A stretch of 64,000 bases of DNA from Candidatus Omnitrophota bacterium (GCA_018830005.1 JAHJTE010000001.1:385332-449331); one strand, 5' to 3'. Counted from the first letter of the stretch, positions 14,781-29,840 are shown. Numbers and translations are program-made. Notes: generated by a model not told the origin, from the sequence alone.

Positions 14781-14852
14781 GCTTAGTTAAGTTTATATTA
14801 ACAATTACTTGAGACTCGGATTATGGATGTTGTTTTTTTCTGAGTCCAACCA

Positions 14853-14980
14853 GTTGCGAAAATCGTCCAATAGGGGGAATCCTATTTGAGATAATCAAAT
14901 TAGCTCTTTTTGACGGTATAAGGCCTAAACCAAGCAGAGAGTTTTCCCTCGCTGAGTATAACTCCCTTCAGGTACCCCAG
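14853..14980 (+). repeat. T element, copy 4, a long variant with a ~60-bp insertion, ending 'GGTACCCCAG'
   Basis: Both halves of the T motif are present, separated by unique sequence. It is not followed by an R repeat; the array ends here. Confidence 0.6.
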
Positions 14981-15279: not shown

Positions 15280-16890
15280 TTACGCGGTAGGGTTTTTTAG
15301 CAGCTTCTGCCACATTTCGTTTTGTTTTTCCCAATTTAACTCTCGGCAGATTTTGTTGATCTTGTATTCGGGGATTAATGAGATGTTCTTATTGTCGGAA
15401 AGAAGGATTTCTTCTTGAATGTTTGGCGCAAGCATTAGCGCGTTCATGATTAAGTAGATTTTAACATCGCCTAAGTTAAGCCACTCAGCCATTTGTTTTA
15501 AGTCTTTCACTCGGTCGCTAGCGATTACGTCTTGTATTTGATGCGCTAAGATTAACCTTTGTCGTAGCAGTGGTTCGTTCTTAATATTTATCTGATTAGG
15601 AGGAACCGGCAGGTTTTTGAGTTCCTTGAGTTCTACCTTATATTGACGTTTCTTATTGTCTTTTAGCAAAACGATTTCAAGTATGCCTTTGTTACCATCG
15701 AAACTCGCCTCTTTAAGGACTGTTTTTATAATCGCAATTTTATCCTGCAAGCTAAAGGTATCCCATACTTTCTCGTCGAGCTTCGGCAGAGGAGTCAAGG
15801 TTTTGAGCAATTCGATGATTTTCTGTTCAATCTTCTGCGCGCTCAGTAAGCGGGTAGGACAGGTTTTGTAGCCGCGCTTACTGGCACTCATACAAAGGTA
15901 GTAGTGATACTTGTATTTGTTGGCTTTGATATTGTAGGAGAAGTACATCGCGCAGTTGCAAGCTTTACAGCGTAGGAGTCCGGTAAGCAACCCTACATGT
16001 TTAGTCTTTTTGGTCATTTTCCAGTCAGGCCTGTTTTCTGCAAGTATGCTTTGTGCTTTCTGGAAGGTTTCTTTCGAAATAATCGCTTCATGTTCTCCCG
16101 GATATAACTCGGCCTGGTATGAAACCTTGCCGGCGTAAAGCACATTTCTTAAGATTAGCTGAATACCGTTGCTTGTAAACTGAATCCCACCGAATTTTCT
16201 GCCTTTTTCAGATGTATGCTGTTTAGTTGTGTATCCAAGGTCATTCATAGATATCGTTACTGACAAAAGTGAGCGCTTCTCAATATATAGGTTAAAGATT
16301 TTGCGTATAAGCTTGGCTTCCTTCGGGTTAATTACGAGCTTATGTTTTTTCTTATCGATGCTATAGCCTAAAGATGGTCTTCCTCCGATCCATTTGCCTT
16401 TTCTCTTAGCAGCGCCCATCTTGTCGCGGGTTCTTTCGCTGATTATTTCGCGTTCAAACTGCGCAAAAGAGAGGAGGATATTAAGCGTAAGCCTGCCCAT
16501 CGAGTTTTGCGTATTAAAGTGCTGTGTTACTGATACGAAAGTGGCACCATGTTTTTCAAATACAGACAGGAGCTCTGCAAAATCAAGAAGTGAGCGTGAT
16601 AGGCGATCAACCTTATAGACTACTACGCAATTAATTTTATTGGCTTTGATGTCAGTAAGAAGCCTTTGAAGTGCAGGTCTGTCTGTATTGGCACCGGTGA
16701 ATCCACCGTCATCGTAGTATTCTGGCGAAGCTACCCAGCCTTCGTTTTTCTGGCTGGCAATGTAGCTTTCACAGGACTCGCGCTGGGCATCCAAGGTAGT
16801 AAAGTCACGCTCAAGTCCATCGCTGACCGATTTGCGCGTATAAATAGCGCAATTAATAATCTGTTTCTCTTTAGGTTCTATGGTTTTCAT
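15280..16890 (-). CDS. large serine recombinase (resolvase catalytic domain, recombinase domain, zinc beta-ribbon)
   Basis: 'IYTRKSVSD' catalytic Ser region, 'VDRLSRS' and 'FEREIISERT' resolvase motifs. The C-terminal Cys cluster 'CKACNC...YYLCMSASKRGYKTCP' matches the zinc ribbon of large serine integrases. 536 aa. Confidence 0.85.
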   Translation of the reverse strand: MKTIEPKEKQIINCAIYTRKSVSDGLERDFTTLDAQRESCESYIASQKNEGWVASPEYYDDGGFTGANTDRPALQRLLTDIKANKINCVVVYKVDRLSRSLLDFAELLSVFEKHGATFVSVTQHFNTQNSMGRLTLNILLSFAQFEREIISERTRDKMGAAKRKGKWIGGRPSLGYSIDKKKHKLVINPKEAKLIRKIFNLYIEKRSLLSVTISMNDLGYTTKQHTSEKGRKFGGIQFTSNGIQLILRNVLYAGKVSYQAELYPGEHEAIISKETFQKAQSILAENRPDWKMTKKTKHVGLLTGLLRCKACNCAMYFSYNIKANKYKYHYYLCMSASKRGYKTCPTRLLSAQKIEQKIIELLKTLTPLPKLDEKVWDTFSLQDKIAIIKTVLKEASFDGNKGILEIVLLKDNKKRQYKVELKELKNLPVPPNQINIKNEPLLRQRLILAHQIQDVIASDRVKDLKQMAEWLNLGDVKIYLIMNALMLAPNIQEEILLSDNKNISLIPEYKINKICRELNWEKQNEMWQKLLKNPTA

Positions 16891-17363
16891 AAATTAAAAA
16901 AATTATAGCCGTTCCAATGCACTCCGGTTATTTCTTCAGCTATGGTGGTAAGATGCTTATATATCTTCCCGTTATATTCAAAGCCATTATCAAGCACCTT
17001 GACCTGGATATTTTTGCCTTTATATTTCTTGATGATAACACTTCCTGGAATAGGAAGGCGTCGGTCTCTTCCAAGGCTTTTCTTTCTTGCCTGCGTTTCA
17101 AGGCTTATCTTCGGTCTAATCGACTTATTATTAACAGGATCATAAAGTTTTATAAGTTCTCTAAGCCTATTTTCCGCTTTTTGCGATAAGCTGCCATATT
17201 TAAGCTCCTGCAGGCCGTAGGCAATCCTTCTTATTAGGTAGATTTTATTGTCCGAAGTCGCCTTTTGGCCATTAAATAGCTCTTCGTATTTCTTTTGGAG
17301 CTTAGGAATGGTCTTCTTTTTGAGATCCGCAATTTTGGTTTCTAACGTCTCTTTCATTGGCAC
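16887..17363 (-). CDS. DUF2924-like protein, the usual partner of large serine recombinases
   Basis: 158 aa. Start overlaps the recombinase stop. The 'KIYLIRRIAYGLQE' pattern resembles the DUF2924 family (from memory). Confidence 0.5.
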   Translation of the reverse strand: MPMKETLETKIADLKKKTIPKLQKKYEELFNGQKATSDNKIYLIRRIAYGLQELKYGSLSQKAENRLRELIKLYDPVNNKSIRPKISLETQARKKSLGRDRRLPIPGSVIIKKYKGKNIQVKVLDNGFEYNGKIYKHLTTIAEEITGVHWNGYNFFNL

Positions 17364-17431: not shown

Positions 17432-17460
17432 TTGTCAAAACAGACGCAGAGTTGTATAAT
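17432..17460 (+). promoter_or_regulatory. sigma70-like promoter (TTGTCA-N17-TATAAT)
   Basis: Near-consensus -35 and -10 hexamers with a 17-nt spacer, about 45 nt upstream of the excisionase-like gene. Confidence 0.5.
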
Positions 17461-17504: not shown

Positions 17505-17675
17505 GTGGAAACTCTCACCGTAGAAGAACTAGCTAAATATCTAAAACTCCACCAATATACAATCCGCCGCCTTGCACGAACTGGAAAAATTCCATCTTTT
17601 AAAGCTGGAGGACAGTGGAGGTTTCGTAAGGATGAAATCTATAAATGGTCTATTTCAAATAGGGAGCATAAATGA
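17505..17675 (+). CDS. excisionase-family helix-turn-helix DNA-binding protein (Xis/AlpA-like)
   Basis: 56 aa, GTG start after GGAG. 'LTVEELAKYLKLHQYTIRRLARTGKIPSFKAGGQWRFRKDEI' matches the excisionase-type HTH. Its stop overlaps the next gene's start (ATGA). Confidence 0.6.
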   Translation: METLTVEELAKYLKLHQYTIRRLARTGKIPSFKAGGQWRFRKDEIYKWSISNREHK

Positions 17676-20600
17676 GCACTCAATTTATCACAAATCAGGA
17701 TAGGCTTCTTTCAGATGTCGTAAATAATATCTTGCCTTCCTCAAAAAATCTATATTTTTTAATTGGATATTTCTATTTCTCTGGCTTTGAAGAAGTCTAC
17801 AAGAATGTCAAAGACAAAGAAATCAAGATATTAGTAGGTTTAGAGATAGAGCATGACATTACCAATAAAATCAGAGAATTTGAAATCATTCAAGAAGTGA
17901 ATACTTCAGGCGGTAAAATAAAAGATAGTTATTTTAAGTCTTTAGTTAAGCTATTTAATGATACAGATTTTTTCGATTCACATGTAAAACAAGAAGCCTT
18001 TAAGATATTTTTAGATAAAATTAAGGACGGCTCGTTAGAGATTAGAAAGACTCGTCAGCCTAATCACGCCAAGCTCTACATATTTGAAAATCAAGAGAAG
18101 TTTAGTCAAGGTGGAGATTATCCTGGTACAGTTATTACTGGATCTAGCAACTTTACTAGGTCTGGTTTCAAGGGGCGGTTTGAGATAAATGTTGTTTCAA
18201 GAGATGCTCGTAATTTCAGTGAAGCTTATAAGATTTTTCAAGATTTGTGGAAAAATTCTGTAGTGATAGTTGATAAAGAAAATATTGAAGATTTTTTCAG
18301 CAATGTAATAGATAATATTTGGTTAGATAGAATTCCTAGACCATTTTTAGTTTACGTGCGTGTATTAGAAGAATATTTTCTCGAATATAATAGGGATTTT
18401 GTAAGGTTGCCCGCTGAGATTACAAGGGGTAGATACATTAATCTCAAATATCAAATTGATGCAATAAAGCGCGCTTTGGATGTGCTGAAGAGGCACAACG
18501 GCGTAATTATTGCTGACGTAGTAGGCTTAGGCAAGAGTATTATTGCTTCTGCGGCTGCTCACAATCTGAATCTAAAAAGTATTGTTATTGTCCCTCCTCA
18601 CCTAAAAGCCCAATGGGATGACTATCGTTATGATTTTGAATTTAATGCCAAGGTTTACAGCTCTGGTAAAATAGAGCAAGCGTTAAAAGAAAATATTCAA
18701 GAGGAGGAGCAGCTCGTCATTGTTGATGAGGCCCATAAATATAGAAACGAATTAACTAGGGATTACGCAAGTTTACATAAATTATGTCAGCGTAATAAAG
18801 TAATGCTTCTATCAGCTACCCCGTTTAACAATCGGCCTCAGGACGTATTTTCAATGGTTAAATTATTTCAAATACCCACGAGATCGACTATTCAGACTGT
18901 AGATAATCTTTCGTTCCAATTTAAAAAACTTGTTTCGGAATTCCAAAAGATTAAACAAGATCAGCAAGGCAAAAAAGTAAGCAACAAGGTGATCGCCTCT
19001 CGCGTAAAAGAGGTAGCTAATGGGATCAGGGACATATTGTCGCCTTTGGTGATTAGACGGTCCAGATTAGATTTAGACGCCATAGAAGAATATAAAGAAG
19101 ATTTAAAGCGTCAAAAGATTCAATTTCCTAAAGTTAATCCACCTGAGATTCTTGATTATGAATTAGAGGATCTAAGTGATATTTATATAGATACTCTTGA
19201 TACTATATGCCCTGAAGATGAAAATGCAGGATTTATTGGAGCTAGGTACAAGCCGACCAGTTATATTAAGGATTTTGATAAATATAAGGATAGAATCGCA
19301 AAAGAAATGGGAGTTGATGAGAATTTATTACGTCAAACTCAAGTAAACTTAGCGAAGTTTATGAAGCGTTTATTGGTCCGTAGATTCGAGAGTTCAGTAT
19401 ATGCATTTCAGAAGACCCTTGATTCATTAATTCGTAATTCGGAACTTATGCGCGATTGGTATGATAAATTAGGTAAGATTCCAATATACAAAAAGGGTAA
19501 TCTACCAGATGTAGATATACTTCAGGAATCTGTCGGAGAAGATTTAGATGAAGAGTTAAGAGAAGCCACGCTTGAAGAGGAGTTAAAAGAACATATAGAA
19601 AAAGGCCTGTGGCTCATAGATAAAAAGGAGCTTAGAAAACAATTTATAGAGGATATTAATAGTGATATTAAGATGCTTAAAGAAGTTAGGGAGGAATGGT
19701 TTGAAGAAGGATTTCCGAAAGACCCTAAGCTCGAACACCTAAAAGAAATTTTACTAGAAAAGTTGAAATCAGAACCTGATAGAAAAATAGTTATTTTTAC
19801 TGAGTTTGCGGATACAGCTGGACATTTATACAAAAACCTTAAAGAAACTCTAAGGGTTTTTAAGTATTCTGCTCAAGACGCAAGTGAGAAAAACAAAAGG
19901 ATAATTAAAGAAAATTTTGATGCCGGCTACCGAGTTCAGGTAAATGATTATGATGTATTGATTGCTACTGATGCAATTTCAGAAGGGTTTAATCTGCACA
20001 GGGCAGGAATTGTTTTTAACTACGATATTCCTTATAATCCAACTAGGGTTATTCAAAGAGTAGGCCGCATAAATCGTATTAATAAAAAGGTATTTGATGA
20101 GCTGTTTATCTATAACTACTTTCCTACTGTAACTGGAGAGGAAGCAACAAGGATAAAACAAGTTTCTACTTTAAAGATCGCAATGGTACATGCACTTTTT
20201 GGAGAGGATACTAAAATACTTACTAAAGATGAGGAACTTCAAAGATACTTTGCTGATAAATTTGAGGAAACTTTAAGGAATGAAGAAGAGCTTTCACCAG
20301 AAGCTAAACATGAGAATTTCATCAAGAAATTACGTATTTCTGAACCACGCGTGATTGAAGAGGCTTTAAATTTACCACGGCGTTCTCGTGTTAAAAGAAC
20401 GGTTAAAAAGGATAAAAAAGGTGTAATTATCTTTGGCAAGAAAGGTGAAGAGCATGCTTTTAAATATGGAAATAAACAAGTTGAGTCAGTTTCTTTAAGT
20501 ATTCCTCAGGCTTTGGAATTATTCAAAGCAAAGGCTGAAGAGAAAGGCGAGAAAACTGGTAAATCTTTCGATGAAATTTATGAAAATGTTAGAATAAAAC

Positions 20601-20914
20601 TATTTTCTAAAAGAACTGAAGTCGCTAAAGATAGAGGAAAAAGAGATACTATTGATAAAGTGAATGTTTTGAAAAACAAGCTTCCTAAGGTAAAAGATTA
20701 TTTAGAAGATTTGTTGTATGTTGTGAATGATTTGGATGCTTTGCCGGATAGATATGAGAAATTAATAAGGGCAGTTGATTCAAAAAGCTTAGAGGAAGAT
20801 TTTAAGATTTTACAGAAAGAAGTGCCTCATAAATATCTTATCCAAATTATTGATAGAGAGCAGCGTATTGAAGAAGGCAAAGAGACCTTAATTTTATCAG
20901 AGGAATTAATTTAA
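17672..20914 (+). CDS. PLD-family nuclease domain fused to an SNF2-family (DEAH) helicase
   Basis: N-terminal HKD motif 'NHAKLYIF...GSSNFTRSG'. Helicase motif I 'DVVGLGKSIIA', motif II 'VIVDEAHKYRN', motif VI 'QRVGRINRI'. 1080 aa. Confidence 0.8.
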   Translation: MSTQFITNQDRLLSDVVNNILPSSKNLYFLIGYFYFSGFEEVYKNVKDKEIKILVGLEIEHDITNKIREFEIIQEVNTSGGKIKDSYFKSLVKLFNDTDFFDSHVKQEAFKIFLDKIKDGSLEIRKTRQPNHAKLYIFENQEKFSQGGDYPGTVITGSSNFTRSGFKGRFEINVVSRDARNFSEAYKIFQDLWKNSVVIVDKENIEDFFSNVIDNIWLDRIPRPFLVYVRVLEEYFLEYNRDFVRLPAEITRGRYINLKYQIDAIKRALDVLKRHNGVIIADVVGLGKSIIASAAAHNLNLKSIVIVPPHLKAQWDDYRYDFEFNAKVYSSGKIEQALKENIQEEEQLVIVDEAHKYRNELTRDYASLHKLCQRNKVMLLSATPFNNRPQDVFSMVKLFQIPTRSTIQTVDNLSFQFKKLVSEFQKIKQDQQGKKVSNKVIASRVKEVANGIRDILSPLVIRRSRLDLDAIEEYKEDLKRQKIQFPKVNPPEILDYELEDLSDIYIDTLDTICPEDENAGFIGARYKPTSYIKDFDKYKDRIAKEMGVDENLLRQTQVNLAKFMKRLLVRRFESSVYAFQKTLDSLIRNSELMRDWYDKLGKIPIYKKGNLPDVDILQESVGEDLDEELREATLEEELKEHIEKGLWLIDKKELRKQFIEDINSDIKMLKEVREEWFEEGFPKDPKLEHLKEILLEKLKSEPDRKIVIFTEFADTAGHLYKNLKETLRVFKYSAQDASEKNKRIIKENFDAGYRVQVNDYDVLIATDAISEGFNLHRAGIVFNYDIPYNPTRVIQRVGRINRINKKVFDELFIYNYFPTVTGEEATRIKQVSTLKIAMVHALFGEDTKILTKDEELQRYFADKFEETLRNEEELSPEAKHENFIKKLRISEPRVIEEALNLPRRSRVKRTVKKDKKGVIIFGKKGEEHAFKYGNKQVESVSLSIPQALELFKAKAEEKGEKTGKSFDEIYENVRIKLFSKRTEVAKDRGKRDTIDKVNVLKNKLPKVKDYLEDLLYVVNDLDALPDRYEKLIRAVDSKSLEEDFKILQKEVPHKYLIQIIDREQRIEEGKETLILSEELI

Positions 20915-20918
20915 TTTT

Positions 20919-23900
20919 ATGGATTTTAAAGTTACTTATGAACGAGAGAAATATCTAGATTTTTTCCAAAATCAATTCCTGCCTGAAGATTTTGAAAGTT
21001 GCGATGAGAGTATCGAATCTCAATTTAAACCCCAGCATATAAGCAAAGTCACCAAGATTGGTCAAGTTCCATCCCTCGATTTAAATATATACGAAATTAA
21101 GCATCATTCTGAGAATGATCCTCGCGTTTCACTTTCAAGAGATTCCTTTCGCATACTGGCACAATACGGGGTAAGAAGAGCACTAGCAATCTTTACGTCT
21201 TCAAGTTCATCTAATTATCGTTTATCTCTTATTACTATTGATTTAAAATTGGAAGGTAGGCGAGTTCAAAAGGAATATTCTAATCCCCGCCGATACTCTT
21301 TCTTTTTAGGTCCTGATACAAAAACACACACTCCAGAAGAGTATCTTATGAAACAGGGTCGAATAAAAAATTTTGAAGATTTAAAGAACCGTTTCTCAAT
21401 CGAGGTAGTAAATAAAGATTTCTACATGAAAATCGCGATTCTTTTTACTCAACTGGCTGGCGGTAAGCGCAAAATTGGACGTAAATCAATTGACGCTGGT
21501 AGAGGCCTATTGGACTTGCCTGGAACTAGTGATGATACTTTAGACAAAGAGTTTACTGTGAGGCTTATTGGTAGACTTGTTTTTTGCTGGTTTTTAAAGA
21601 GAAAACAGTCAGATAGGAATATTTCCCTTTTACCCGAAGAACTTCTTTCAGTAAATGCAGTTTTGAAAAATAAAGGCTATTACCATGGTATCCTGGAACC
21701 TTTATTTTTTGAAGTGCTTAATACTCCGGCAAAAGATCGCGATAAGAAATATCAAGAATCGACATGGTCACAAATTCCCTTCTTAAACGGTGGTCTTTTT
21801 ACACCGCATCATCATGATTTTTATGATCCGGGGCTTCTAGGGATTTCAAAGTATATAAACGTCCTCAAAATTCCTGACCATTGGATAAAAGAGTTATTTG
21901 ATGTTTTTGAAACTTATAACTTTACTATAGACGAAAATACTTCTGTTGATGTGGAGCTTTCCATTGAACCTGAAATGCTCGGACGTATCTTTGAAAATTT
22001 GCTTGCAGAGATTAATCCGGAAACCGGTGAGACAGCACGTAAGGCAACCGGCAGTTATTATACTCCACGACCCATTGTTGAATATATGGTGAGCGAGAGT
22101 TTAAAACAGTATCTTTTAACTAAGACAAAGCTTGAAGAAAATAAAATCACGCGTTTGCTTACCTATGAGGACGTTGAATTGAAGCTTACCAGCTCAGAGA
22201 AAGAATCTATCCTTAATGCTCTTGATGTTATTAAAATCATTGATCCTGCTTGCGGTAGTGGCGCTTTTCCAATGGGGATATTACAGAAGATGCTTGTTAT
22301 TCTCCAAAAGATTGATCCAGAATCTGAATGGTGGCTCGATAAAATGCTTTCGCGTATCGGCAACAAAACTTTAGAGAGAAAATTAAAAGTAGAAAATGTT
22401 AGCTATATTCATAAGTTAGGCATAATTCAAAACGCTATTTTTGGTGTAGATATCCAACCGATAGCTGTAGAGATTTCGAAGTTGAGGTTTTTCTTGTCGC
22501 TTATTGTAGACGAAACAGTAAATGATTCAAAGAAAAACCGTGGCATAGAGCCATTGCCTAATCTTGAGTTTAAATTTGTTTGCACTAATAGCTTGATAGG
22601 GCTTCCTAAAAAAGGTACCCAGCAGACACTTTTCGAAGCTGATGAAGATATTAAATCATTAAGGGATCTTAGAGACGGATATTTAAGAAGCTATGGCAGC
22701 GAGAAGAGGAAAGTAGAGAAAAGATTCCTTGAGCTACAAAGAAAAATGGCAAAGCATGCTTTAGGTTGGGCTCTTTTTGGGGGGGAAAAATCACAGACAA
22801 TGAAGCTATCACAGTGGAATCCATTCTCAGAAGAACCTTGCTCATGGTTTGATCCAGATTGGATGTTTGGGATAAAGGATGGATTTGATATTGTGATTGC
22901 CAATCCCCCATACATTAAAGAGTATGTTAACAGAAATGCATTCAAGGGATTTAGAAGCTCGCTTTATTATCAAGGCAAAATGGATATTTGGTATATGTTT
23001 GTTTGTAAGAGTTTAGACATAACAAGAGACGGCACAGGTTTAGTTACTTTTATCGCACAAAATAATTGGGTCACTAGTTATGGCGCCTCAAAGATGAGGA
23101 ATAAAGTTATAAAAGATGCTCAAATTTTGAACTTGATTGATTTTGGTGCTTTTAAGATATTCGAGTCTGGCATACAAACTATGGTTATGGTGTTTAGGAA
23201 AAATACTGATTTGGATAGTTACTCATTTGATTACAGGCGACTTCTTGGGAATGATCTTGAATTCGATGATGCTATTTTTCTTATTAATAAGGAAGATAAT
23301 CCTAAGTCAGAATACTTAACTCCTACGATTACAAGGATCAATTTTATAGATAAAACATTAACATTCAGCAGTTCTGATATTGAACCGATACTTGAAAAAT
23401 TATCATTAAAAGCAAATTTTCGATTTAACGATAAGGAAGTTGCAAACGGCATACACCATCATCACGATCGCGTGAATAAAAACCGCGAGGAAATTTTAGG
23501 TGGTCAATATAAGGTTGGGGATGGAATTTTCGTTCTAAGCAACGAAGAAAAGGAGCGAATTTCATTCACAAAAAAAGAGTTAGGCTTAATAAAGCCTTCC
23601 TATACCACAAAAGAATTGCTACGATGGTATGGAAATTCTACAAATAAAGAATGGGTTATCTACACGGATTCGAGTTTTAAAAATAAGAAACAAATTGAGA
23701 ATTATTTGAATATTAAAAGACATCTTGATCGTTTTAGGAAAGTTATTACTTCAGACAATAAGCCCTACGGTCTTCATAGAGCTCGAGATGAATATTTTTT
23801 TAGAGGAGAGAAAATTATAGCTGCAAGGAAATGTGCAAGGCCGACTTTCACCTATGTCGATTTTGATAGTTATGTTTCTGCAACATTTTATGTGATCAAA

Positions 23901-24239
23901 ACTGAAAGAGTTGACCAGCAATTTCTAACAGGTCTTTTAAATTCTAAACTGATTACTTTCTGGCTAAGACACAGAGGAAAAATGCAAGGCACTAATTATC
24001 AGATTGACAAGGAACCTATTATTAATCTCCCCATTTTGAAAGCCGATAAAAACGGTCAAAATGCAATCCGAAATATTGTTGCCAAAATCATCGATATTTT
24101 AAAATCAAAAGGCAGCAATGAGAAACAAGCCAAAGTCAAAGAATACGAACGCCAAATCGACCAGATGGTTTATAAGCTTTATGGTTTAACATCAGAAGAA
24201 ATGAAAATTGTAGAAGGACAATATGATAAAAAGAATTAA
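20919..24239 (+). CDS. Eco57I/PglX/MmeI-type gamma-class N6-adenine DNA methyltransferase (~1100 aa)
   Basis: 'GSYYTPRPIVEYMV' (motif X), 'IIDPACGSGAFP' (motif I) and 'VIANPPYIKEY' (motif IV), with a long C-terminal target-recognition region. The N-terminus has a possible D..ExK pattern ('SLDLNIYEIKH'). Confidence 0.8.
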   Translation: MDFKVTYEREKYLDFFQNQFLPEDFESCDESIESQFKPQHISKVTKIGQVPSLDLNIYEIKHHSENDPRVSLSRDSFRILAQYGVRRALAIFTSSSSSNYRLSLITIDLKLEGRRVQKEYSNPRRYSFFLGPDTKTHTPEEYLMKQGRIKNFEDLKNRFSIEVVNKDFYMKIAILFTQLAGGKRKIGRKSIDAGRGLLDLPGTSDDTLDKEFTVRLIGRLVFCWFLKRKQSDRNISLLPEELLSVNAVLKNKGYYHGILEPLFFEVLNTPAKDRDKKYQESTWSQIPFLNGGLFTPHHHDFYDPGLLGISKYINVLKIPDHWIKELFDVFETYNFTIDENTSVDVELSIEPEMLGRIFENLLAEINPETGETARKATGSYYTPRPIVEYMVSESLKQYLLTKTKLEENKITRLLTYEDVELKLTSSEKESILNALDVIKIIDPACGSGAFPMGILQKMLVILQKIDPESEWWLDKMLSRIGNKTLERKLKVENVSYIHKLGIIQNAIFGVDIQPIAVEISKLRFFLSLIVDETVNDSKKNRGIEPLPNLEFKFVCTNSLIGLPKKGTQQTLFEADEDIKSLRDLRDGYLRSYGSEKRKVEKRFLELQRKMAKHALGWALFGGEKSQTMKLSQWNPFSEEPCSWFDPDWMFGIKDGFDIVIANPPYIKEYVNRNAFKGFRSSLYYQGKMDIWYMFVCKSLDITRDGTGLVTFIAQNNWVTSYGASKMRNKVIKDAQILNLIDFGAFKIFESGIQTMVMVFRKNTDLDSYSFDYRRLLGNDLEFDDAIFLINKEDNPKSEYLTPTITRINFIDKTLTFSSSDIEPILEKLSLKANFRFNDKEVANGIHHHHDRVNKNREEILGGQYKVGDGIFVLSNEEKERISFTKKELGLIKPSYTTKELLRWYGNSTNKEWVIYTDSSFKNKKQIENYLNIKRHLDRFRKVITSDNKPYGLHRARDEYFFRGEKIIAARKCARPTFTYVDFDSYVSATFYVIKTERVDQQFLTGLLNSKLITFWLRHRGKMQGTNYQIDKEPIINLPILKADKNGQNAIRNIVAKIIDILKSKGSNEKQAKVKEYERQIDQMVYKLYGLTSEEMKIVEGQYDKKN

Positions 24240-26631
24240 AAAAATTAAAGGGGTTGGAAGATTTTTGAATGTCGGGCATACCGAGCTTGGCCGGCTGACC
24301 TTAATTTACGGCCCTAATTGTTACGGAAAATCAACCCTCGCCGACATTTTTCGTTCCATAGCGAATCAAAATCCGGAAGTTTTATTAAATAGACAATCAA
24401 TAATAAGGGACGGCAACCCAATTACCCAAGAGGTGTGTTTTAGTATCAAAAATGGTACAGATAAAACGGAACAAGATATTTCTTGTCTTAACCAAAGATG
24501 GAATACGAGCAATTTTAATTGCTCAATAGAAGTTTTTGACTCTCGCTTTATCGAGGACAATGTTTTTACAGGATTAACAATCTCAAGGTCTAATAAAGAA
24601 AATCTGACAAATTTACTAATAGGCGAGAAAAGTGTCGAGATTGGCAAACAAATAGATTCTTTAAAGAATAAATCACTCCGCGAAACGACAAAAACTATCG
24701 GCGAACTTGGAGATTTACTCAAAAGAAGTTTGGGAACTTTAGATTTAGGAATAAGCCTTGAAGACTTTATATCAGTCGAGAAGCCGGATGATATTGAAGC
24801 AACTAAAGCTGAATTAACTATGCTCCAGGGGAATCTGAAGAAATTTAGAAAATCAATTTCGGAAAAGAATAAAATTCTTGAACTCGATGAGCCGATAATA
24901 CTTTCTCTTGAAAATCCCGAACCGACAATCAAAATTCTAAAAGATTCGCTGGGAAAAGGCTTTGATGATATAAATGATACTGCATATAAGCGGATGCGAG
25001 AACATATAGAACAACACTTTAATTCCCATGATGGCGAAGAAGAAGAATGGATTGAAAAAGGAGTAAATGCCTATCTTAAACAAAATAAAGATGCAACCAT
25101 CTTAAATTGCCCGTTTTGTAGTCAATCTTTGGTTACAGTTGTTGATCTCATTGAGACATACAAAACAGTATTCAGCGAAGAATATGGAAGCTTTTGTAAT
25201 GAAGCTTTCAGAATACTGAATGATAAACATCAAGAATTCAATAAGCTTATTAGCGCTGTTAAATTAGTAGAAAATTCAGTAAATAAAAATTTGGCAAGTT
25301 GCCACCGCTGGCAGGATTACTTTACAGACGAGACTCAAAAACTCATTGAACAAATAGATAATCTTAGCAACAAAGCGAATAAATCCAATTGCAATCTTGT
25401 AGGCTTGATGGAAGAAGTTATTGGTAAATTTGGAGAACTTATCGCTGAAAAAAAGAAGAAACCTTTTGTTTGTATCAAGGAATACCCCGCCAGCGATAAA
25501 TTACTAATCGTTTATCAGCAGTTTGGAGAAATAATAAATCAATACAATGAATCTGTAAAATTACTTCTTAGGGAAATAAATACCCTTAAAACAAGGAGTC
25601 AGAACGACCAATTAATAAAGGAATCAGAGAAGTTGGGCAATAAGATAATAGATTTGAATATAAAAGTAAAAAGATACGAATTATCGGCCGATATAGATAA
25701 GGTACAACTCTTAAGAGGAAAGAAAGATAAAACAGAAAAGGAAATTAAAAAATTGCAGGAAGAACTAGAACGAGAAAATAAAGAATTTATTGAGCAATAC
25801 TTCCAGGATGCAACACAAATTTTTAATAGATTAGGCTCTATTGATTTTGAAATTCAAACAACTTATCGACGTTGGGGAGGTCAGCCGGTATATGAACCGA
25901 CAATAAAATTTGCAAATGAGGAAATTACTTTTGATCGGTTACCATTTATATTTAGTGATGCAGACAGGAGGGCTTTGGCATTTTCAATTTTCATTTCAAA
26001 ACTCAGAAAGAAAAGCGAGGCTGAATTAAAAAACACCATTGTTTTCTTAGACGACCCAATAACTAGCTTTGACGACAATAGGATTTCACAGACCTTTATA
26101 GAGATCAAGAATCTTACGACGTCTTCCCGCCAATTGATTATAGCTGCGCACCACAGCAGATTTTTACTTGATACTTACGAGAAACTGAGAAGTCTTCCGA
26201 ATTTGGATTTAAAATTTATTGAAATCAAAAGAGATGGTTTTGGTACTGTCTTCGGGTTGGTTAGTGATCCTAAAACTAGATTAGATCCCCATGCTCAAGA
26301 AATAGAGAAGATGGAAAGATTTATTAACGGCGATTCTGATGTAAACGCGTCGGACGTGCGCAGATCATTAAGACCGATACTACAAAAAGAGCTAGAGTGG
26401 AGGTTCAGAAAAAATTTAAAAGGAGTATCTGTTGAGGGGCTTGGCGATATTGTTACCAAACTAAAAGAAGGAAATTCAATAAATGAAGAGATGGCAAGAA
26501 AGATTTATGACTTTAATGACGTACTTAAAGACGACCATCATGGAGCAGTTTTAGATATGGACGAAGATACAAGGAATTTATCTAAAAACATCATTAAATT
26601 TATCTTTGAAGAACTAAACCCGGTAGTGTAG
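24223..26631 (+). CDS. ABC/SMC-like ATPase with a long coiled-coil insert (AAA_13/RloC-like)
   Basis: Walker A 'GPNCYGKST' at the N-terminus. Walker B/D-loop 'VFLDDPITSFDD' and H-loop 'AAHHS' about 600 aa downstream, with coiled-coil sequence between. 802 aa. Confidence 0.65.
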   Translation: MIKRIKKIKGVGRFLNVGHTELGRLTLIYGPNCYGKSTLADIFRSIANQNPEVLLNRQSIIRDGNPITQEVCFSIKNGTDKTEQDISCLNQRWNTSNFNCSIEVFDSRFIEDNVFTGLTISRSNKENLTNLLIGEKSVEIGKQIDSLKNKSLRETTKTIGELGDLLKRSLGTLDLGISLEDFISVEKPDDIEATKAELTMLQGNLKKFRKSISEKNKILELDEPIILSLENPEPTIKILKDSLGKGFDDINDTAYKRMREHIEQHFNSHDGEEEEWIEKGVNAYLKQNKDATILNCPFCSQSLVTVVDLIETYKTVFSEEYGSFCNEAFRILNDKHQEFNKLISAVKLVENSVNKNLASCHRWQDYFTDETQKLIEQIDNLSNKANKSNCNLVGLMEEVIGKFGELIAEKKKKPFVCIKEYPASDKLLIVYQQFGEIINQYNESVKLLLREINTLKTRSQNDQLIKESEKLGNKIIDLNIKVKRYELSADIDKVQLLRGKKDKTEKEIKKLQEELERENKEFIEQYFQDATQIFNRLGSIDFEIQTTYRRWGGQPVYEPTIKFANEEITFDRLPFIFSDADRRALAFSIFISKLRKKSEAELKNTIVFLDDPITSFDDNRISQTFIEIKNLTTSSRQLIIAAHHSRFLLDTYEKLRSLPNLDLKFIEIKRDGFGTVFGLVSDPKTRLDPHAQEIEKMERFINGDSDVNASDVRRSLRPILQKELEWRFRKNLKGVSVEGLGDIVTKLKEGNSINEEMARKIYDFNDVLKDDHHGAVLDMDEDTRNLSKNIIKFIFEELNPVV

Positions 26632-26727
26632 TAGTGAGTCCGGGGAAATTCCGGTGACACATACCTAATTTATTTAAGCCTGGTCGCGATTATATAGCCG
26701 GCAGATAAGTGAGGAGATATTAAATAA

Positions 26728-27411
26728 ATGATTAAGCTATCACGTTCAAAGTTAGAGTTATTTCTCGACTGCCCACGTTGCTTCTGGTTGAATATCAATA
26801 AGAAAATAAAGCGCCCACCATCATTTCCTTATACAATAAACTCTGCTATAGATGCTCTTTTAAAGCAAGAATTTGATGTCCATCGTGAAAACGGTACTGC
26901 CCATTACCTTATAAAGAAATATAATATAGACGCCATCCCTTATAAATGTAAAGAAATCAATGCCTGGCGACATAACTTCACTGGCATTCAGTTTCAGCAT
27001 AAGCCAACAGATTTCTTGGTTTTTGGCGCAGTTGATGATGTCTGGATAAATTCTCAAGAAGAATTAATAGTGGTTGATTATAAAGCCACTGGTGCAAAAG
27101 AATACAAAATTTATGACAGCTACAAGCGACAGTTGGAAATTTACCAATGGTTGCTTCAGCAGAACGGCTACAAAGTTTCAAAGACAGGTTATTTTCTCTT
27201 TGCCAAGGTAAATAAGGATGGCGGCTTTAAAGAAGGTAAGCTTTCTTTTGATTTATTTATCGAGCCACAGGAAGGTGATCGCTCTTGGGTAGAAAGCGCA
27301 ATTATTAATGCCCGTAAGGCCATAGATAATGATATACCGGTAGCAAGCGAAAACTGCATTTATTGTCAATTTATCAAAAACGGAGGATATTTATGTCTAA
27401 AGGAAAAGTAA
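26728..27411 (+). CDS. Cas4-like PD-(D/E)XK nuclease with a 4-Cys cluster
   Basis: N-terminal 'CPRCFW', core 'VVDYKATG...LEIYQWL' (D, E-x-K/QxxxY), C-terminal 'CIYCQF...YLC'. This is the Cas4/AddB-type Fe-S nuclease arrangement. Confidence 0.65.
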   Translation: MIKLSRSKLELFLDCPRCFWLNINKKIKRPPSFPYTINSAIDALLKQEFDVHRENGTAHYLIKKYNIDAIPYKCKEINAWRHNFTGIQFQHKPTDFLVFGAVDDVWINSQEELIVVDYKATGAKEYKIYDSYKRQLEIYQWLLQQNGYKVSKTGYFLFAKVNKDGGFKEGKLSFDLFIEPQEGDRSWVESAIINARKAIDNDIPVASENCIYCQFIKNGGYLCLKEK

Positions 27412-27668
27412 CAAAGGTTTCTGATGGGGATACTTTTAAAATTAGGGGAGGAAAAGCAATCCGCCTTGCAAATGTAAAAGCGCCTGAAATGGGAGCCAAG
27501 GGTGGCGCAAAGGCAAGAAATGAACTACAGGATATGATTGGAAACAAGACTATTAGTTATGATACAGTTGGAAAATCATATGGTAGAGATGTCGCAAAAG
27601 TTAAAATAGCTGGTAAGTCAGTAAACCAGGCGATGAGAAACAAAGGATATACAAACAGAGGCAAGTAG
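27393..27668 (+). CDS. staphylococcal-nuclease (SNase/thermonuclease)-like small nuclease
   Basis: 91 aa, start at the ATG after GGAGG. 'GDTFKIRGGKAIRLANVKAPE...YGRDVAKV' matches the SNase Ca-binding/catalytic region. Overlaps the preceding gene's end. Confidence 0.55.
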   Translation: MSKGKVTKVSDGDTFKIRGGKAIRLANVKAPEMGAKGGAKARNELQDMIGNKTISYDTVGKSYGRDVAKVKIAGKSVNQAMRNKGYTNRGK

Positions 27669-27883: not shown

Positions 27884-29146
27884 ATGGAAATCCGTAAAAT
27901 TCCTATCTCTCAAGTTAAACCCCATCCAGACAATCCACGTGTTCCTCTCACGTCCCAGCATTCAGAATATAGGCAAATCAAAAAGAGCCTGAAAAAATTT
28001 GGGCTTGTGCTGCCTCTTGTTTGTAGCTCGCGGACGAATTATATACTTGGAGGTAATCAACGATACAGCGTATTGCTTACCGAGGGCGTAAAAGAAGTTA
28101 ACGTTGTTTTTGTTGATTTAGACCCTCAACGCGAAAAAGAGCTGATGATTGCGTTAAACGGAATTTATGGACTGTGGGATTATCCTAAATTAGCCGACAT
28201 TCTTCGGGACTTTGGACAACTTCCTGATTTTGATTTTGAGTCAATTGGTTTCACTGTACCTGATTTATCAAATATTTTAGATAATCATCTACCGCTACAG
28301 GATGATACTTTTGACTTTGATGCTGCGCTCGAATCAACTAAAGAGCCGGTTACAAAAAAAGGCGATGTCATTTCATTGGGCATGCATCATCGACTAATGT
28401 GTGGTGATGCGACAAGTGAAGAAGATATGTGTATGCTTCTCGGCGATACGAGGGTTGATTTGCTGGATATCGATTGGCCATACAATGTTAATTACATGGG
28501 AGGAAACTGTCCTCGTGTTGATACCCGACCTAAAAAATCCCGCCGATGGAGCAAGATTTATTCGGATAATCTTCCTCAGTCTGAATATGAAGTTTTTATG
28601 CGCAAGGTTCTCACGAATATAAAACTAAACCTTAAACCAGGTGGAGTTTTTTACCAGTGGCAAGCCCATCGTCAGCTCGGACCACTTTATCAGATTTTGA
28701 TAGATCTCGATTTTCATGTTTCATGTCTTATCTGCTGGAAAAAACAGTCCGCACCCATTTCTTATGCGGATTATTCGTTTCAGACGGAACAGGCTGTCTA
28801 TGGTTGGCTCAAAGGAGAAAGTCATTATTTTGCGGGAAAACCTGGAGCATCAAATTTGTGGGAAATTAAACGCGACTCCACGAAACTTTACGAACACCCT
28901 TGCCAGAAACCAGTAAGTTTAGCCCAGAAAGCAATAAAAAATTCTACGCGCCTCAATGACGTAGTGTTGGATGTTTTTCTGGGATCGGGTTCGGTTTTGA
29001 TAGCTGCCGAATCTCTTAGCCGCAGGTGTTTTGCGATGGAGCTCGATCCTAAATATTGCGACGTGATAGTAAAAAGGTACATAAATTTTGTTGGTAAAAG
29101 TAAAGTTTCTTCGGAAATATTGAATAAATACTGCGAGGAGGTTTAA
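27884..29146 (+). CDS. ParB-like nuclease N-terminal domain fused to a DNA methyltransferase (phage-type)
   Basis: N-terminal ParB/Srx fold ('KPHPDNPR'). Methyltransferase motifs 'DIDWPYN' (DPPY-like) and 'VLDVFLGSGSVLIAAE' (FxGxG). 420 aa. Confidence 0.7.
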   Translation: MEIRKIPISQVKPHPDNPRVPLTSQHSEYRQIKKSLKKFGLVLPLVCSSRTNYILGGNQRYSVLLTEGVKEVNVVFVDLDPQREKELMIALNGIYGLWDYPKLADILRDFGQLPDFDFESIGFTVPDLSNILDNHLPLQDDTFDFDAALESTKEPVTKKGDVISLGMHHRLMCGDATSEEDMCMLLGDTRVDLLDIDWPYNVNYMGGNCPRVDTRPKKSRRWSKIYSDNLPQSEYEVFMRKVLTNIKLNLKPGGVFYQWQAHRQLGPLYQILIDLDFHVSCLICWKKQSAPISYADYSFQTEQAVYGWLKGESHYFAGKPGASNLWEIKRDSTKLYEHPCQKPVSLAQKAIKNSTRLNDVVLDVFLGSGSVLIAAESLSRRCFAMELDPKYCDVIVKRYINFVGKSKVSSEILNKYCEEV

Positions 29147-29147
29147 A

Positions 29148-29840
29148 ATGGAAAATAAAAATCCAAAATCCGATAGAGAAGGAATTTCGTCAATTACATT
29201 GCTTCAGAAAATAAAATCAGGTGAAATTAGCCCCAAGATGTTAAGTAAAGAAGAACGCCAGGCATGTGTAAGTGTTCTTACTCTGCAGGAAGGATTTACC
29301 ATTGCCCAGATAGCGCAACTTATGTGCTGCTGCGAAAAAACAATTCAACGCGACCTCGCGGAAATAAGAAAGAAAAACTCTCTCGGCCCAAGTCTTGAGT
29401 TAGCAAAAGAGATAATAGGAGGATTTATCGTAAAGGCACAAGTTCACACGTCTCAGCTTATGCGTTTTGCCAGGAGCGGCGAAGGTTCCCTTGGTGAAAG
29501 AGTACAGGCAGAATTTTGTGCTTGGAGAGTCCGTAGGGAACTTATGGAAAAGCTCCAGACATTGGGATACTTACCATTGGTTGCCCAACGGGTCGAGGGA
29601 GAAATCTTCCATTATTGCGAAGACATAGATGGGGAAAAGGGTCTTTTGGAACTAAAGAAATCCTTGGATACTATTGAGACGACGGCTAAAGAAACCGGAA
29701 CACTTGATACCGAGACTCAGGAAAAGATACGTCAAATCAGAGCAAAAATCGAAAAAGCAGAGTTGGAATCGGAAGTAGATAACTTAAATAAAAAACAGGA
29801 TAATAATTTAGGAGAGCAAAATGAATCCGACACTAAATAA
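29148..29840 (+). CDS. putative terminase small subunit / HTH DNA-binding protein
   Basis: 230 aa with an HTH-like region 'FTIAQIAQLMCCCEKTIQRDLAEI'. Sits immediately upstream of and overlapping the terminase large subunit. Assigned by position only. Confidence 0.4.
   Translation: MENKNPKSDREGISSITLLQKIKSGEISPKMLSKEERQACVSVLTLQEGFTIAQIAQLMCCCEKTIQRDLAEIRKKNSLGPSLELAKEIIGGFIVKAQVHTSQLMRFARSGEGSLGERVQAEFCAWRVRRELMEKLQTLGYLPLVAQRVEGEIFHYCEDIDGEKGLLELKKSLDTIETTAKETGTLDTETQEKIRQIRAKIEKAELESEVDNLNKKQDNNLGEQNESDTK

Follow-up and report, generated by a model that had tools for sequence, protein, structure and literature searches.

A conserved PLD-Snf2 and adenine methyltransferase gene pair in a probable composite defence island on a phage-like element of a Candidatus Omnitrophota genome

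A block of co-directional genes in the genome of a Candidatus Omnitrophota bacterium encodes a PLD nuclease fused to a Swi2/Snf2-type ATPase, a large adenine methyltransferase (MTase), an ABC ATPase and two small nuclease-like proteins, raising the question of whether all of them act as a single defence system or only some belong together. A preliminary description had taken five of these genes for one DISARM-like system. Analysis of the block within its window (the whole stretch of 64,000 nucleotides that was analysed) rather favours, with a probability of roughly 70%, a composite defence island on a phage-like element, in which a two-gene ATP-dependent restriction-modification (R-M)-like system is accompanied by an HTH controller and an exchangeable second-line module, its mechanism being proposed by analogy.

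ORF calls and Pfam searches confirmed five ORFs on the plus strand with the domains previously ascribed to them (Table 1), together with a sixth gene of the block that had been missed, coding for a 56-aa HTH protein. The genes had also been described as overlapping, which applies to the MTase/ATPase junction (17 nt, the ATPase start lying across the MTase stop) and to the Cas4-like/SNase-like one (19 nt), but not to the PLD-Snf2/MTase and ATPase/Cas4-like junctions, with gaps of 4 nt and 96 nt, respectively. The stop codon of the HTH gene overlaps the helicase start as ATGA, and the best sigma-70-like match of the region, found 5' of the HTH gene, is likely the operon promoter as predicted from sequence. 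The HTH protein matches a PHROG excisionase/regulator family (4.3e-11) and TIGR01764 (55 bits, cut-off 28.8), and scores 60 bits against MADS1 (cut-off 80). Of 121 related loci, ~29 have a small HTH ORF immediately 5' of the helicase (XRE-type in 19, excisionase type in 10), and the one in the window is probably a C-protein-like controller of the operon.

Table 1. Features of the gene block and its surroundings (window coordinates).
Feature	Position	Strand	Remarks
Large serine recombinase	15280-16890	-	Resolvase 3.8e-36, Recombinase, Zn_ribbon_recom
DUF2924 protein	16887-17363	-	DUF2924 2.6e-36
Sigma-70-like promoter match	17432-17460	+	TTGTCA-17-TATAAT, 11/12, consensus match only
Small HTH gene	17505-17675	+	56 aa, excisionase-family/MAD1-like HTH protein
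Core gene 1 (protein 1)	17672-20914	+	1080 aa, PLD nuclease (one HKD) at the N-terminus, joined to Swi2/Snf2-type ATPase
Core gene 2 (protein 2)	20919-24239	+	1106 aa, gamma-class N6-adenine DNA methyltransferase
Accessory ABC ATPase (protein 3)	24223-26631	+	802 aa, RloC/PrrC-like, AAA_13, PADLOC candidate PDC-S06
Accessory Cas4/AddB-like nuclease (protein 4)	26728-27411	+	227 aa, PD-(D/E)XK kind
Accessory SNase-like gene (protein 5)	27393-27668	+	91 aa, minimal SNase-like OB-fold protein
ParB_N + N6_N4 methyltransferase	27884-29146	+	phage-type module
HTH protein, small-terminase position	29148-29840	+	230 aa, phage-type module
Large terminase (TerL)	29821-31380	+	phage-type module

Comparison of related loci identifies the PLD-Snf2/MTase pair as the only conserved unit, widespread and, as far as sequence indicates, R-M-like. 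The MTase gene lies at most 4 kb downstream of the PLD-Snf2 gene and on the same strand in all 50 genome loci with enough sequence, drawn from numerous bacterial phyla and from a single Methanosarcinales MAG, and the same holds for 41 of 43 IMG/VR viral-contig loci, down to 27-33% identity. A reverse check starting from three MTase homologues found the PLD-Snf2 gene upstream in each, and no conserved third gene was detected in 80 related loci. In the nearest relative (helicase 89% identical), the pair sits at another chromosomal site with other neighbours, beside an ATP synthase operon, and the ATPase, Cas4-like and SNase-like genes are missing. The first two ORFs 3' of the MTase (Pfam, 149 ORFs, 86 loci) are a mixed cargo of mostly ABC-type ATPases (AAA_23 13, AAA_15 12, SMC_N 12, AAA_21 9 and AAA_13 4, these families overlapping on the same proteins), together with KAP (4), TIR (3) and HNH (3). 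In the literature the pair is mentioned in passing and filed as Type IIG, as with a 'PLD + SNF' CDS adjoining Cj0031-like genes (PMC9881135), and no characterising report was found. In favour of an R-M-like pair, a Prevotella gene of 1117 aa, filed as 'Type IIG', preceded by an SNF2 helicase and possibly homologous to this MTase, methylated GGYGAB (m6A) in E. coli without other genes (PMC5608340).

Protein 1 matches PLDc_2 (1.9e-11), SNF2-rel_dom (2.4e-10) and Helicase_C (1.1e-17) in Pfam, as well as the PADLOC 'HKD+Snf2' model C3a139 (2.8e-41, residues 4-853). H132, K134 and GSSN157-160, and in the motor the Walker A GxGKS285-289, DEAH352-355 and R796/R799, are invariant among its homologues, and the C-terminal region (~860-1080), to which no fold was assigned, is likewise conserved. 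The best PDB folds for its AF2 model (pLDDT 72) are SWR1, SRCAP, Rad5, Chd1, RapA and CSB, and the modelled motor is of the Snf2 type.

Protein 2 begins with an unannotated N-domain (residues 1-~200), followed by a helical spacer like that of MmeI, the MTase core and, at ~780-1106, a specificity domain of the TaqI_C type. It matches Eco57I (3.8e-30), N6_Mtase (9.6e-14) and TaqI_C (1.1e-9) in Pfam, and retains N662-P-P-Y665 and the AdoMet motif D442-P-A-x-G-S-G, both invariant among homologues. Its N-terminal 780 aa show a median identity of 47% across loci and its C-terminal specificity part ~30%, with no match in 15 of the 50 loci, a variability suggestive of R-M-like evolution.

Features of this MTase also allow it to be read as a self-contained Type IIG enzyme, the PLD-Snf2 protein then being a separate helper or a merely linked helicase-nuclease defence. 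It joins a gamma-class N6-adenine MTase and a TRD in one chain, as the Type IIG definition asks, it finds its best PADLOC matches among the REBASE-derived REase_MTase_IIG models (2e-76, a relative's MTase reaching 2.4e-280), it has the MTase-TRD organisation and helical spacer of Type IIG/IIL enzymes (MmeI, BpuSI, Cj0031-type), and its fold resembles MmeI, BpuSI and DrdV. Cj0031-type enzymes, in turn, restrict phage (PMC4889913). The N-domain adopts an alpha/beta fold whose alpha-beta-beta-beta-alpha-beta layout is compatible with PD-(D/E)xK and might house a divergent nuclease, and the D..ExK pattern pointed out in the preliminary description is indeed present in the window sequence (D54...E59-x-K61). 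Nonetheless, among 40 homologues E59 is kept in 36 and K61 in only 9, no conserved Asp was found in the expected strand, and the N-domain gave no Pfam match even at E<=5. The MmeI-type nuclease proposed from that pattern is thus backed neither by conservation nor by Pfam, and the MTase appears, from its sequence, to have no evident nuclease of its own. The closest folds of the MTase-TRD part are, moreover, CamA, PglX, M.BseCI and the Type ISP enzyme LlaBIII, the first three being nuclease-less and not IIG enzymes. That MTase and helicase stay together so strictly despite wide divergence argues for interdependence of the two proteins, and an obligatory neighbouring motor-nuclease gene, like the lack of a conserved nuclease signature in the N-domain, sets the pair apart from Type IIG/IIL systems. 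A self-sufficient IIG enzyme is therefore considered unlikely.

The label 'RloC/AAA_13-like' given earlier to the ATPase holds. Protein 3 matches Pfam AAA_13 (5.7e-25) and, over its full length (residues 1-800 on model positions 1-782 of 784), PDC-S06 (PDLC04895, 2.8e-140), a published 'guilt-by-embedding' candidate from inside R-M, BREX and DISARM loci; no curated NCBIfam model matches it, and the PADLOC PrrC match spans only its ATPase part (5e-9). It bears the motifs GPNCYGKST and IVFLDDP, an AAHHS switch and, in the coiled-coil insert, a C296-P-F-C299 zinc hook that all of 13 homologues retain as CP[FLY]C, in agreement with the size (658-897 aa), ABC ATPase motifs and CXXC zinc hook within a coiled-coil insert reported for RloC (PMC2610378). 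When the anticodon-nuclease triad was sought as Arg-X3-Glu-X36-52-His, R717-X3-Q721-X50-H772 was found at the C-terminus. Hence, size, ABC motifs, zinc hook, an R-x3-[E/Q]-x50-H motif and the place after R-M-like MTase genes are common to this protein and RloC/PrrC, whereas the window copy and its nearest relatives (L014, L084, L085) carry Gln for the catalytic Glu, which is present in L083 and more distant homologues. Nuclease activity of the window copy is doubtful because of this replacement, and tRNase activity is putative.

The Cas4-like protein 4 matches PDDEXK_1 (1.2e-13, 52 bits, cut-off 22) and phrog_31195 (1.6e-17), and contains Cys15, Cys18 and a C-x2-C-x9-C motif near its C-terminus. 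It was rejected as a bona fide Cas4, since its scores stay below the cut-offs (Cas_Cas4 21.9 bits, just under 22.7; TIGR00372 35 bits against 65) and no CRISPR array is present in the window. A 51%-identical homologue lies behind a Ppl-like ABC ATPase in two related loci (L105/L106). Protein 5 matches Pfam SNase (1.4e-5). Of the alternative starts of its gene, 27363 and 27393, the ATG at 27393 is the most likely one, lying behind GGAGG and agreeing with the 91-aa gene call of the source contig. In its motif RLANVKAPE, a Lys presumably takes the position of Asp40, a Ca ligand of staphylococcal nuclease.

These accessory genes bear on the proposal that the five, or six, genes constitute one DISARM/BREX-like system with the ABC ATPase and small nucleases as obligatory subunits. 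The genes run in one direction with little space between them, and the MTase-stop/ATPase-start overlap recurs in L084 and L083. Among the five closest ATPase homologues from an independent search, four adjoin a PLD-Snf2/MTase pair, belonging to two clades only 31% identical, which means that the ATPase may be a true, if optional, partner and not a passenger; in CxC-ABC/Pbe systems, besides, a zinc-hook ABC ATPase accompanies a methylase and an HKD-SF2 helicase (PMC10853773). On the contrary, considering that (i) only 3 of the 50 genome loci have the ATPase behind the pair, which itself is syntenic in all of them, (ii) Cas4-like homologues were found in two near-duplicate viral contigs and in none of those 50 loci, (iii) no SNase-like homologue was detected near the pair in genome loci or viral contigs, (iv) the 89%-identical relative does without all three genes, (v) PADLOC gave neither a PbeC nor a DndD match for the ATPase, and (vi) curated DISARM, BREX and MANTIS models remain far under their cut-offs, a single system of five genes, as first claimed, appears distinctly improbable. 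Close ATPase homologues are, in addition, found directly 3' of a Type III Mod gene (L083) or, in L084 and L085, of a distantly related form of the pair, and the putative effectors that follow them differ, namely a caspase-like protein and a Hypoth_Ymh protein.

Regarding the known systems themselves, class 1 DISARM shares SNF2, PLD and a large N6-adenine MTase with the block, and its DrmD and DrmMI models match in part. However, it has DrmA (a helicase associated with DUF1998) and DrmB (DUF1998), and its PLD protein DrmC is separate, while here PLD is fused N-terminally to Snf2. No DrmA, DrmB, BrxC or PglZ turned up when the flanking genes (7.6-41.5 kb) and the larger ORFs in the remainder of the window were scanned with Pfam, which bears out the absence of the first two noted in the preliminary description; its statement that the accessory genes are foreign to DISARM, BREX and Type ISP also stands. 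Membership in DISARM, on the contrary, fails: protein 1 reaches 139.7 bits with the DrmD model NF038317 (cut-off 610), over residues 554-880 only, and the DrmMI PADLOC models cover only residues 372-578 of the MTase (4.6e-17 and 5.1e-11, compared with 2e-76 for IIG). BREX needs a PglZ phosphatase and a BrxC/PglY ATPase, absent from the scanned ORFs and from the conserved neighbourhood, and its PglX model (NCBIfam NF033452) gives the MTase 96.4 bits against a cut-off of 500.

The composite island is better understood from its conserved pair, which in our best reading resembles a split Type ISP or a minimal MANTIS system. MANTIS (Gao_RL) is a BREX-related Type-2 system made of MtsA (DUF499 AAA+ ATPase), MtsB (small protein), MtsC (N6-adenine MTase) and MtsD (HKD-SF2 helicase-nuclease), with a PLD site that arises by dimerisation (bioRxiv 10.64898/2026.09.23.753747; PMC12839542). 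Its effector has the domain order of protein 1, a single-HKD PLD followed by an SF2 ATPase, and is likewise paired with a PglX-like adenine methyltransferase reading short asymmetric sites. However, neither the window nor 80 related loci revealed a DUF499/BrxC-like loader such as MtsA or a conserved small partner gene such as MtsB, the sole ATPase of the window is ABC-type and not AAA+, and MtsD is reported to be SauUSI-like whereas the motor of protein 1 folds like Swi2/Snf2 remodellers. Concurrently, NF042964 (NCBIfam 'phospholipase D-like anti-phage protein') gives protein 1 117 bits against 1100, in the helicase C-lobe region only, and the PADLOC PLD_Helicase model covers just residues 660-805. 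Type ISP enzymes (LlaGI, LlaBIII) share the MTase-TRD fold, as seen for LlaBIII, but consist of one polypeptide instead of two, and carry an Mrr-family PD-(D/E)xK nuclease (PMC2790908) and a Type I HsdR-like motor in place of PLD and Snf2.

By analogy with these systems, the MTase would use its TaqI_C-type specificity domain to read a short asymmetric site and would methylate one adenine, self DNA probably being marked on one strand, as with CamA, PglX, LlaBIII and MmeI. On unmodified DNA, the site-bound MTase would recruit or activate the PLD-Snf2 protein, presumably by physical interaction, whose motor would translocate on double-stranded DNA with cleavage coupled to this movement. Each PLD-Snf2 chain contains one HKD and, therefore, two chains would be needed for one PLD active site; as in Type ISP, Type III and MANTIS systems, DNA with at least two unmodified sites should thus be cut preferentially. 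The ATPase, Cas4-like and SNase-like genes would form an exchangeable second-line module and not subunits of the pair, the ATPase perhaps guarding the R-M-like system or sensing DNA breaks. The earlier suggestion of a new methylation-based defence system is consequently reasonable for the two-gene core but not for all five genes.

The block sits on an integrated phage-like element, as anticipated by the earlier idea of a methylation-based defence carried by a mobile element. On one side, the recombinase and DUF2924 genes, divergent from the operon, constitute the integration module of the element, the nearest curated models of the recombinase being XisF and Ccr, both under cut-offs. On the other side, the ParB-methylase/terminase module shows PHROG matches (phrog_498 3.7e-110; phrog_38 1.5e-88), no capsid, portal or tail genes being recognised between terminase and surE, and the G+C of the block is lower than that of its flanks. 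That the block serves this element itself, be it by packaging or recombining DNA, by degrading that of the host or by methylating its own against restriction, would suit its position between both modules, the 40-odd IMG/VR contigs with homologous pairs, several beside TerL or a ParB-MTase, and the occurrence of Cas4-like exonucleases and SNase-like proteins in phages (PHROG matches), but it is made very improbable by the single weak match (26.6% identity) among 50,697 deposited phage genomes, by most loci, the 89% relative included, being chromosomal or plasmid-borne without nearby phage genes, and by the variable specificity domain and TIR, HEPN, KAP and ABC-ATPase neighbours, hallmarks of defence cargo. 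Similar surroundings recur elsewhere: a serine recombinase adjoins the pair in four other related loci, the ParB-MTase/HTH/TerL trio lies upstream of it in one, and a ParB-MTase and/or TerL is found near it in five.

The locus comprises a two-gene ATP-dependent restriction-modification (R-M)-like system with a controller, plus an RloC-like ABC-ATPase module with two small nucleases, all in a phage-like integrative element. The window matches a Candidatus Omnitrophota metagenome-assembled genome; its PLD-Snf2 protein shows 100% identity to an NCBI 'MAG: helicase' entry, and ENA contig k141_343398 carries its genes in the same order. The five forward-strand open reading frames of the preliminary description are present at the positions first read (table), and their domains agree with those initially assigned, namely PLDc_2, SNF2-related and Helicase_C in the first product, Eco57I/N6_Mtase/TaqI_C in the second, AAA_13 in the third, PDDEXK_1 in the fourth (where a Cas4 model falls just short of its cut-off) and SNase in the fifth. 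The overlap of neighboring genes holds at two of the four junctions and fails at the other two. A small HTH gene, absent from that description, precedes them; it is translationally coupled to the helicase gene through an ATGA overlap and itself comes after the region's best promoter-like site. Alignments of homologues show invariance of the HKD residues His132/Lys134, the GSSN motif, Walker A, DEAH and helicase motif VI, while the NPPY and AdoMet motifs of the methyltransferase do not vary either.

Coordinates of the operon, its flanking element and other features in the window
Feature	Position	Strand	Length (aa)	Remark
843-aa ORF	4548-7079	-	843	adjoins tRNA-Pro
Direct repeat	13501-13575 and 14845-14980			two adjacent segments
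ORF between the repeat copies	13998-14780		260	unannotated
Excisionase-family HTH gene	17505-17675		56
PLD-Snf2 gene	17672-20914	+	1080
Adenine methyltransferase gene	20919-24239	+	1106
ABC ATPase gene	24223-26631	+	802
ATPase residues R717, Q721, H772	26371-26538
Cas4-like gene	26728-27411	+	227
SNase-like gene	27393-27668	+	91	start probable
ParB_N-N6_N4 methyltransferase, HTH protein, large terminase and next two ORFs	27884-33426
Tandem 78-nt unit	34823-34990			surE-fxsA intergenic
Gas-vesicle gene cluster	46331-60326
AAA_5 protein	48654-49628			may be GvpN-like
ArsA-type ATPase	51261-52199
CDC48-like double AAA ATPase	52263-54398
GvpL/GvpF gene	54802-55851			C-terminal DnaJ domain
GvpL/GvpF gene	59102-59983

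Related loci (L numbers) were then compared, 80 of them on one-genome-per-species contigs, found by alignment of PLD-Snf2 homologues, and a further 52 on IMG/VR viral contigs; genome loci whose sequence runs 3 kb or more past the helicase were regarded as informative (n = 50). A methyltransferase gene lies on the same strand within 4 kb downstream of the helicase in 50/50 informative genome loci and in 41 of 43 viral-contig loci, including relatives at merely 27-33% identity. When the search was started in reverse from three methyltransferase homologues, the PLD-Snf2 gene was found upstream in all three. Genome hosts of the pair span Planctomycetota, Nitrospirota, Elusimicrobiota, Ignavibacteria, Bacteroidota, Cloacimonadota, Bacillota, Mesoaciditoga/Athalassotoga, Caldisericota and Spirochaetia, together with one Methanosarcinales MAG. 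On clustering all ORFs of the 80 loci no third conserved gene emerged, the next commonest cluster being a deaminase + HATPase_c_4 protein (13 loci). Regarding the add-on genes, the ATPase stands 3' of the pair in L014, L045 and L068 and in no further genome locus, the Cas4-like gene has homologues in just two viral contigs, the near-duplicates L105 and L106, and no homologue of the SNase-like gene was detected in the genome and IMG/VR sets, the SNase-domain genes further downstream in L151, L155 and L156 being unrelated to it. In the closest relative, another Omnitrophota genome with an 89% identical helicase, the pair adjoins an ATP synthase operon, has an XRE-type HTH gene upstream and is followed by genes entirely unlike those of the window. 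Since the pair recurs and the add-on genes do so rarely or never, the conserved, mobile unit is the two-gene pair, often with a small HTH gene in front (directly before it in ~29 of 121 loci, 19 XRE-type and 10 excisionase-type).

Locus L155 (recombinase, pair, 779 aa, 232 aa, NERD, SNase, terminase) was considered as a second copy of the five-gene arrangement and rejected, its downstream genes not being homologous to those of the window. Two plasmids also carry the helicase. On Parabacteroides distasonis plasmid NZ_OY725763 (L153, 21864-28527) a full-length, 46% identical copy is followed by a methylase and then by TIR and AAA genes, and on Thermus oshimai JL-2 plasmid pTHEOS02 (L154) a 34% identical homologue has genes for a DNA methyltransferase and a hypothetical protein upstream.

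The initial reading of the five genes as one DISARM-like system is not sustained, as curated models reject it and only two of the genes recur together. Membership in DISARM, BREX or the MANTIS-type PLD effectors is rejected by scores far below the respective cut-offs (DrmD model against PLD-Snf2, 139.7 bits for a cut-off of 610; PglX model against the methyltransferase, 96.4 for 500; MANTIS-type PLD effector model, 117 for 1100). The claimed absence of DrmA and DrmB was corroborated, and neither these nor BrxC, PglZ or DUF499 were found among the flanking genes (7.6-41.5 kb) and the larger ORFs outside that span. The nearest functional analogues are MANTIS, Type ISP and Type III systems. MANTIS (Gao_RL, a BREX-related Type-2 system) shares the HKD-SF2 effector architecture and a PglX-like methyltransferase with the pair, but the central component of MANTIS/Gao_RL and of Hma is a DUF499 AAA+ ATPase (PMC12839542; bioRxiv 10.64898/2026.09.23.753747), which the window lacks. 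Type ISP enzymes unite the same four activities in one chain, using other nuclease and motor families, whereas Type III systems offer an analogue in their two-gene Mod/Res logic.

The helicase-nuclease forms a coherent family. At E<=1e-10 its N-terminal 250 residues alone pick up 400 clusters built at 50% identity, the scan gave at least 518 genome matches, and in a word-indexed search over 7,000 clusters (90% identity) matched, the best 120 of which all share this architecture; full-length members measure 1060-1160 aa, with the PLD module N-terminal. The AlphaFold model (pLDDT 72) finds its top PDB matches among Swi2/Snf2 double-stranded DNA translocases, namely SWR1, SRCAP, Rad5, Chd1, RapA and CSB. 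Each chain carries one HKD motif; in known PLD nucleases, among them BfiI, SauUSI and MtsD, one active site is built by a dimer (bioRxiv 10.64898/2026.09.23.753747).

In the methyltransferase, the N-terminal 780 residues are conserved (median identity 47%, 50 loci) while the C-terminal specificity domain is at ~30% identity and escapes detection altogether in 15 of these loci, as is usual where R-M specificity turns over. Since genes of this kind are reported to undergo programmed inversion (PMC9881135), shufflon-type inverted repeats were looked for around the specificity domain, and none was found. Residues 1 to ~135 make up an alpha/beta domain in which a D..ExK pattern had been suspected. 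This domain has no Pfam match even at E<=5, Glu59 is kept in 36 of 40 homologues and Lys61 in only nine, so that the pattern is not conserved, and the invariant residues, Arg101, Ser103 and Arg125, are not acidic. Therefore, there is no good evidence in the protein sequence for a nuclease of its own.

On the model of Type ISP, Type III and MANTIS systems, we propose that the methyltransferase with its TRD would methylate adenine at an asymmetric site and thereby mark self DNA, and that at an unmodified site it would recruit or license the PLD-Snf2 protein. ATP-driven translocation would then let two motor-nucleases meet, their PLD halves making the active site that cuts, and the HTH protein would time expression as R-M controllers do. 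A 'Type IIG' gene of Prevotella intermedia (1117 aa), with a SNF2/RAD54 helicase upstream, was enough on its own to give m6A methylation at GGYGAB in E. coli (PMC5608340), a result that fits this scheme, its homology to the methyltransferase of the window being only putative. Tentatively, with a probability of roughly 0.4, HKD-Snf2 proteins and PglX-like methyltransferases would constitute a distinct and widespread class of ATP-dependent R-M, a 'split Type ISP' that is driven by a motor of the chromatin-remodeller type, has its PLD site formed by a dimer and works without a BrxC/DUF499 loader, and for which RloC-like ABC ATPases, that of the window included, would be a recurrent guard, firing on inhibition of the pair.

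As far as found, the core pair is widespread and experimentally untouched. The openly searchable literature, to which the search was confined, gave passing mentions and no paper defining or testing the pair as a system; one of them concerns a Cj0031-homologous Type II R-M CDS beside a CDS for phospholipase D and SNF domains (PMC9881135), and another is the Prevotella locus. PADLOC holds an HMM labelled 'HKD+Snf2', REBASE-derived 'Type IIG' models match the methyltransferase, and the NCBI pipeline labels one homologous pair 'SNF2-related protein' and 'N-6 DNA methylase'. BREX, DISARM and MANTIS each depend on additional ATPases or scaffolds, and the way they couple recognition to restriction is debated. 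Should the pair be self-sufficient, it would be the simplest known arrangement of a PglX-type 'hemimethylating' methyltransferase with a motor-nuclease, its two-protein version would provide a tractable model for the coupling of site recognition to restriction, and annotation would be corrected for a methyltransferase family now filed as 'Type IIG' stand-alone or under generic 'N-6 DNA methylase' / 'SNF2-related protein' names.

The ATPase matches the PADLOC candidate defence model PDC-S06 over its full length (2.8e-140); the source genes of PDC models are embedded in R-M, BREX and DISARM loci. It resembles RloC (PMC2610378) in size, in ABC motifs and in the CxxC zinc hook of its coiled-coil insert; the hook, C296-P-F-C299, is found in 13/13 homologues. 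The C-terminal Arg-x3-Glu-x36-52-His of RloC (PMC2610378) is also present, but with Gln for Glu in the window copy (R717, Q721, H772). Gln is likewise found in L014, L084 and L085, and the Glu of the RloC/PrrC triad is retained in L083 and in more distant homologues. Close homologues always lie just 3' of a methyltransferase gene. In L084 and L085 that gene belongs to a distantly related clade of the pair, and in L083 (5966-10403) the ATPase, 81% identical to that of the window, overlaps the stop of a Type III Mod gene; members of this subfamily thus occur with two or more kinds of R-M-like system. The gene after the ATPase differs by locus, with caspase-like and Hypoth_Ymh putative effectors elsewhere and the Cas4-like nuclease in the window.

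A Pfam census of the first two ORFs after the methyltransferase (86 loci) placed ABC-type ATPases as the top class (AAA_23 13, AAA_15 12, SMC_N 12, AAA_21 9, AAA_13 4 and OLD-TOPRIM 3, families that overlap on the same proteins), followed by KAP NTPases, TIR and HNH; SNase and PDDEXK_1 were not among the families recurrent in these 86 loci. Other loci have a deaminase + HATPase_c_4 protein, Bro-like PDC-S13 or a RhuM-like protein inserted between helicase and methyltransferase. Such downstream and inserted cargo follows the pattern of embedded or adjacent second-line defence known for Hma, BREX and Type I R-M (PMC12839542). The locus is a clear case of second-line defence genes lodged beside an R-M-like core, ABC ATPases being the commonest. 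The deaminase protein (~480-630 aa) combines N-terminal cytidine-deaminase, HATPase_c_4 and C-terminal wHTH domains, and most of its 13 loci (including L007, L014, L021 at 17863-19302, L033, L035, L037, L039, L062, L077, L078, L081 and L082) have its gene between the two genes of the pair; in PADLOC it weakly matches pAgo-associated and CARF-type regulators.

Identification of the fourth gene as Cas4 is rejected, because its product scores below both curated Cas4 cut-offs and no CRISPR array was found by Rfam and tandem-repeat scans of the window, which gave two tRNAs as their only findings. It is a generic PD-(D/E)XK nuclease with Cas4/AddB-like cysteines. Its homologue in L105/L106 (51% identical) comes after a different, Ppl-like ABC ATPase, which hints at an 'ABC ATPase + nuclease' module. 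Downstream of the pair, the viral contig L105 (16433-21326; also L106) encodes a 948-aa Ppl-like ATPase, the Cas4-like nuclease and a trypsin-like protease, a trio that may form an ATPase + nuclease + protease module. The 948-aa protein was discarded as a counterpart of the ATPase of the window, as it matches Ppl and their common part is only the ABC Walker B region. The SNase-like protein carries Lys where, as we take it, the Ca-ligand Asp stands in SNase, and may be non-catalytic.

The proposed mobile-element setting was borne out by a recombinase at the left and a ParB-methylase and a terminase at the right. To the left, a DUF2924 gene and a large serine recombinase gene are divergent from the operon; to the right lie the ParB_N-N6_N4 methyltransferase, a 230-aa HTH protein and the large terminase, then two ORFs of 342 and 175 aa with no match in Pfam, PHROGs or NCBIfam, and after these the host genes surE, fxsA and rpoN. 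No capsid, portal or tail genes were recognized in the element, so it is a degraded prophage or satellite-like. G+C is 33-37% in the operon versus ~40-42% in the flanks, and a search for direct repeats marking the element ends gave nothing convincing. A serine recombinase and/or ParB-methylase and terminase also stand beside the pair in L003, L103, L104, L108, L109, L126, L136, L142 and L155; most loci of the pair are not phage-like, and a search of deposited phage genomes for it gave a single weak match and nothing else.

Just left of the serine recombinase, a direct repeat (32 nt at 88% and 44 nt at 98%) brackets the 260-aa ORF and could be a repeated intergenic element or an insertion relic. 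The tandem unit between surE and fxsA is present in two-and-a-bit copies (82% match), with no Rfam match, and the ORF beside tRNA-Pro has no Pfam match at E<=1e-5. Further right, the window holds a gas-vesicle gene cluster with two GvpL/GvpF genes.
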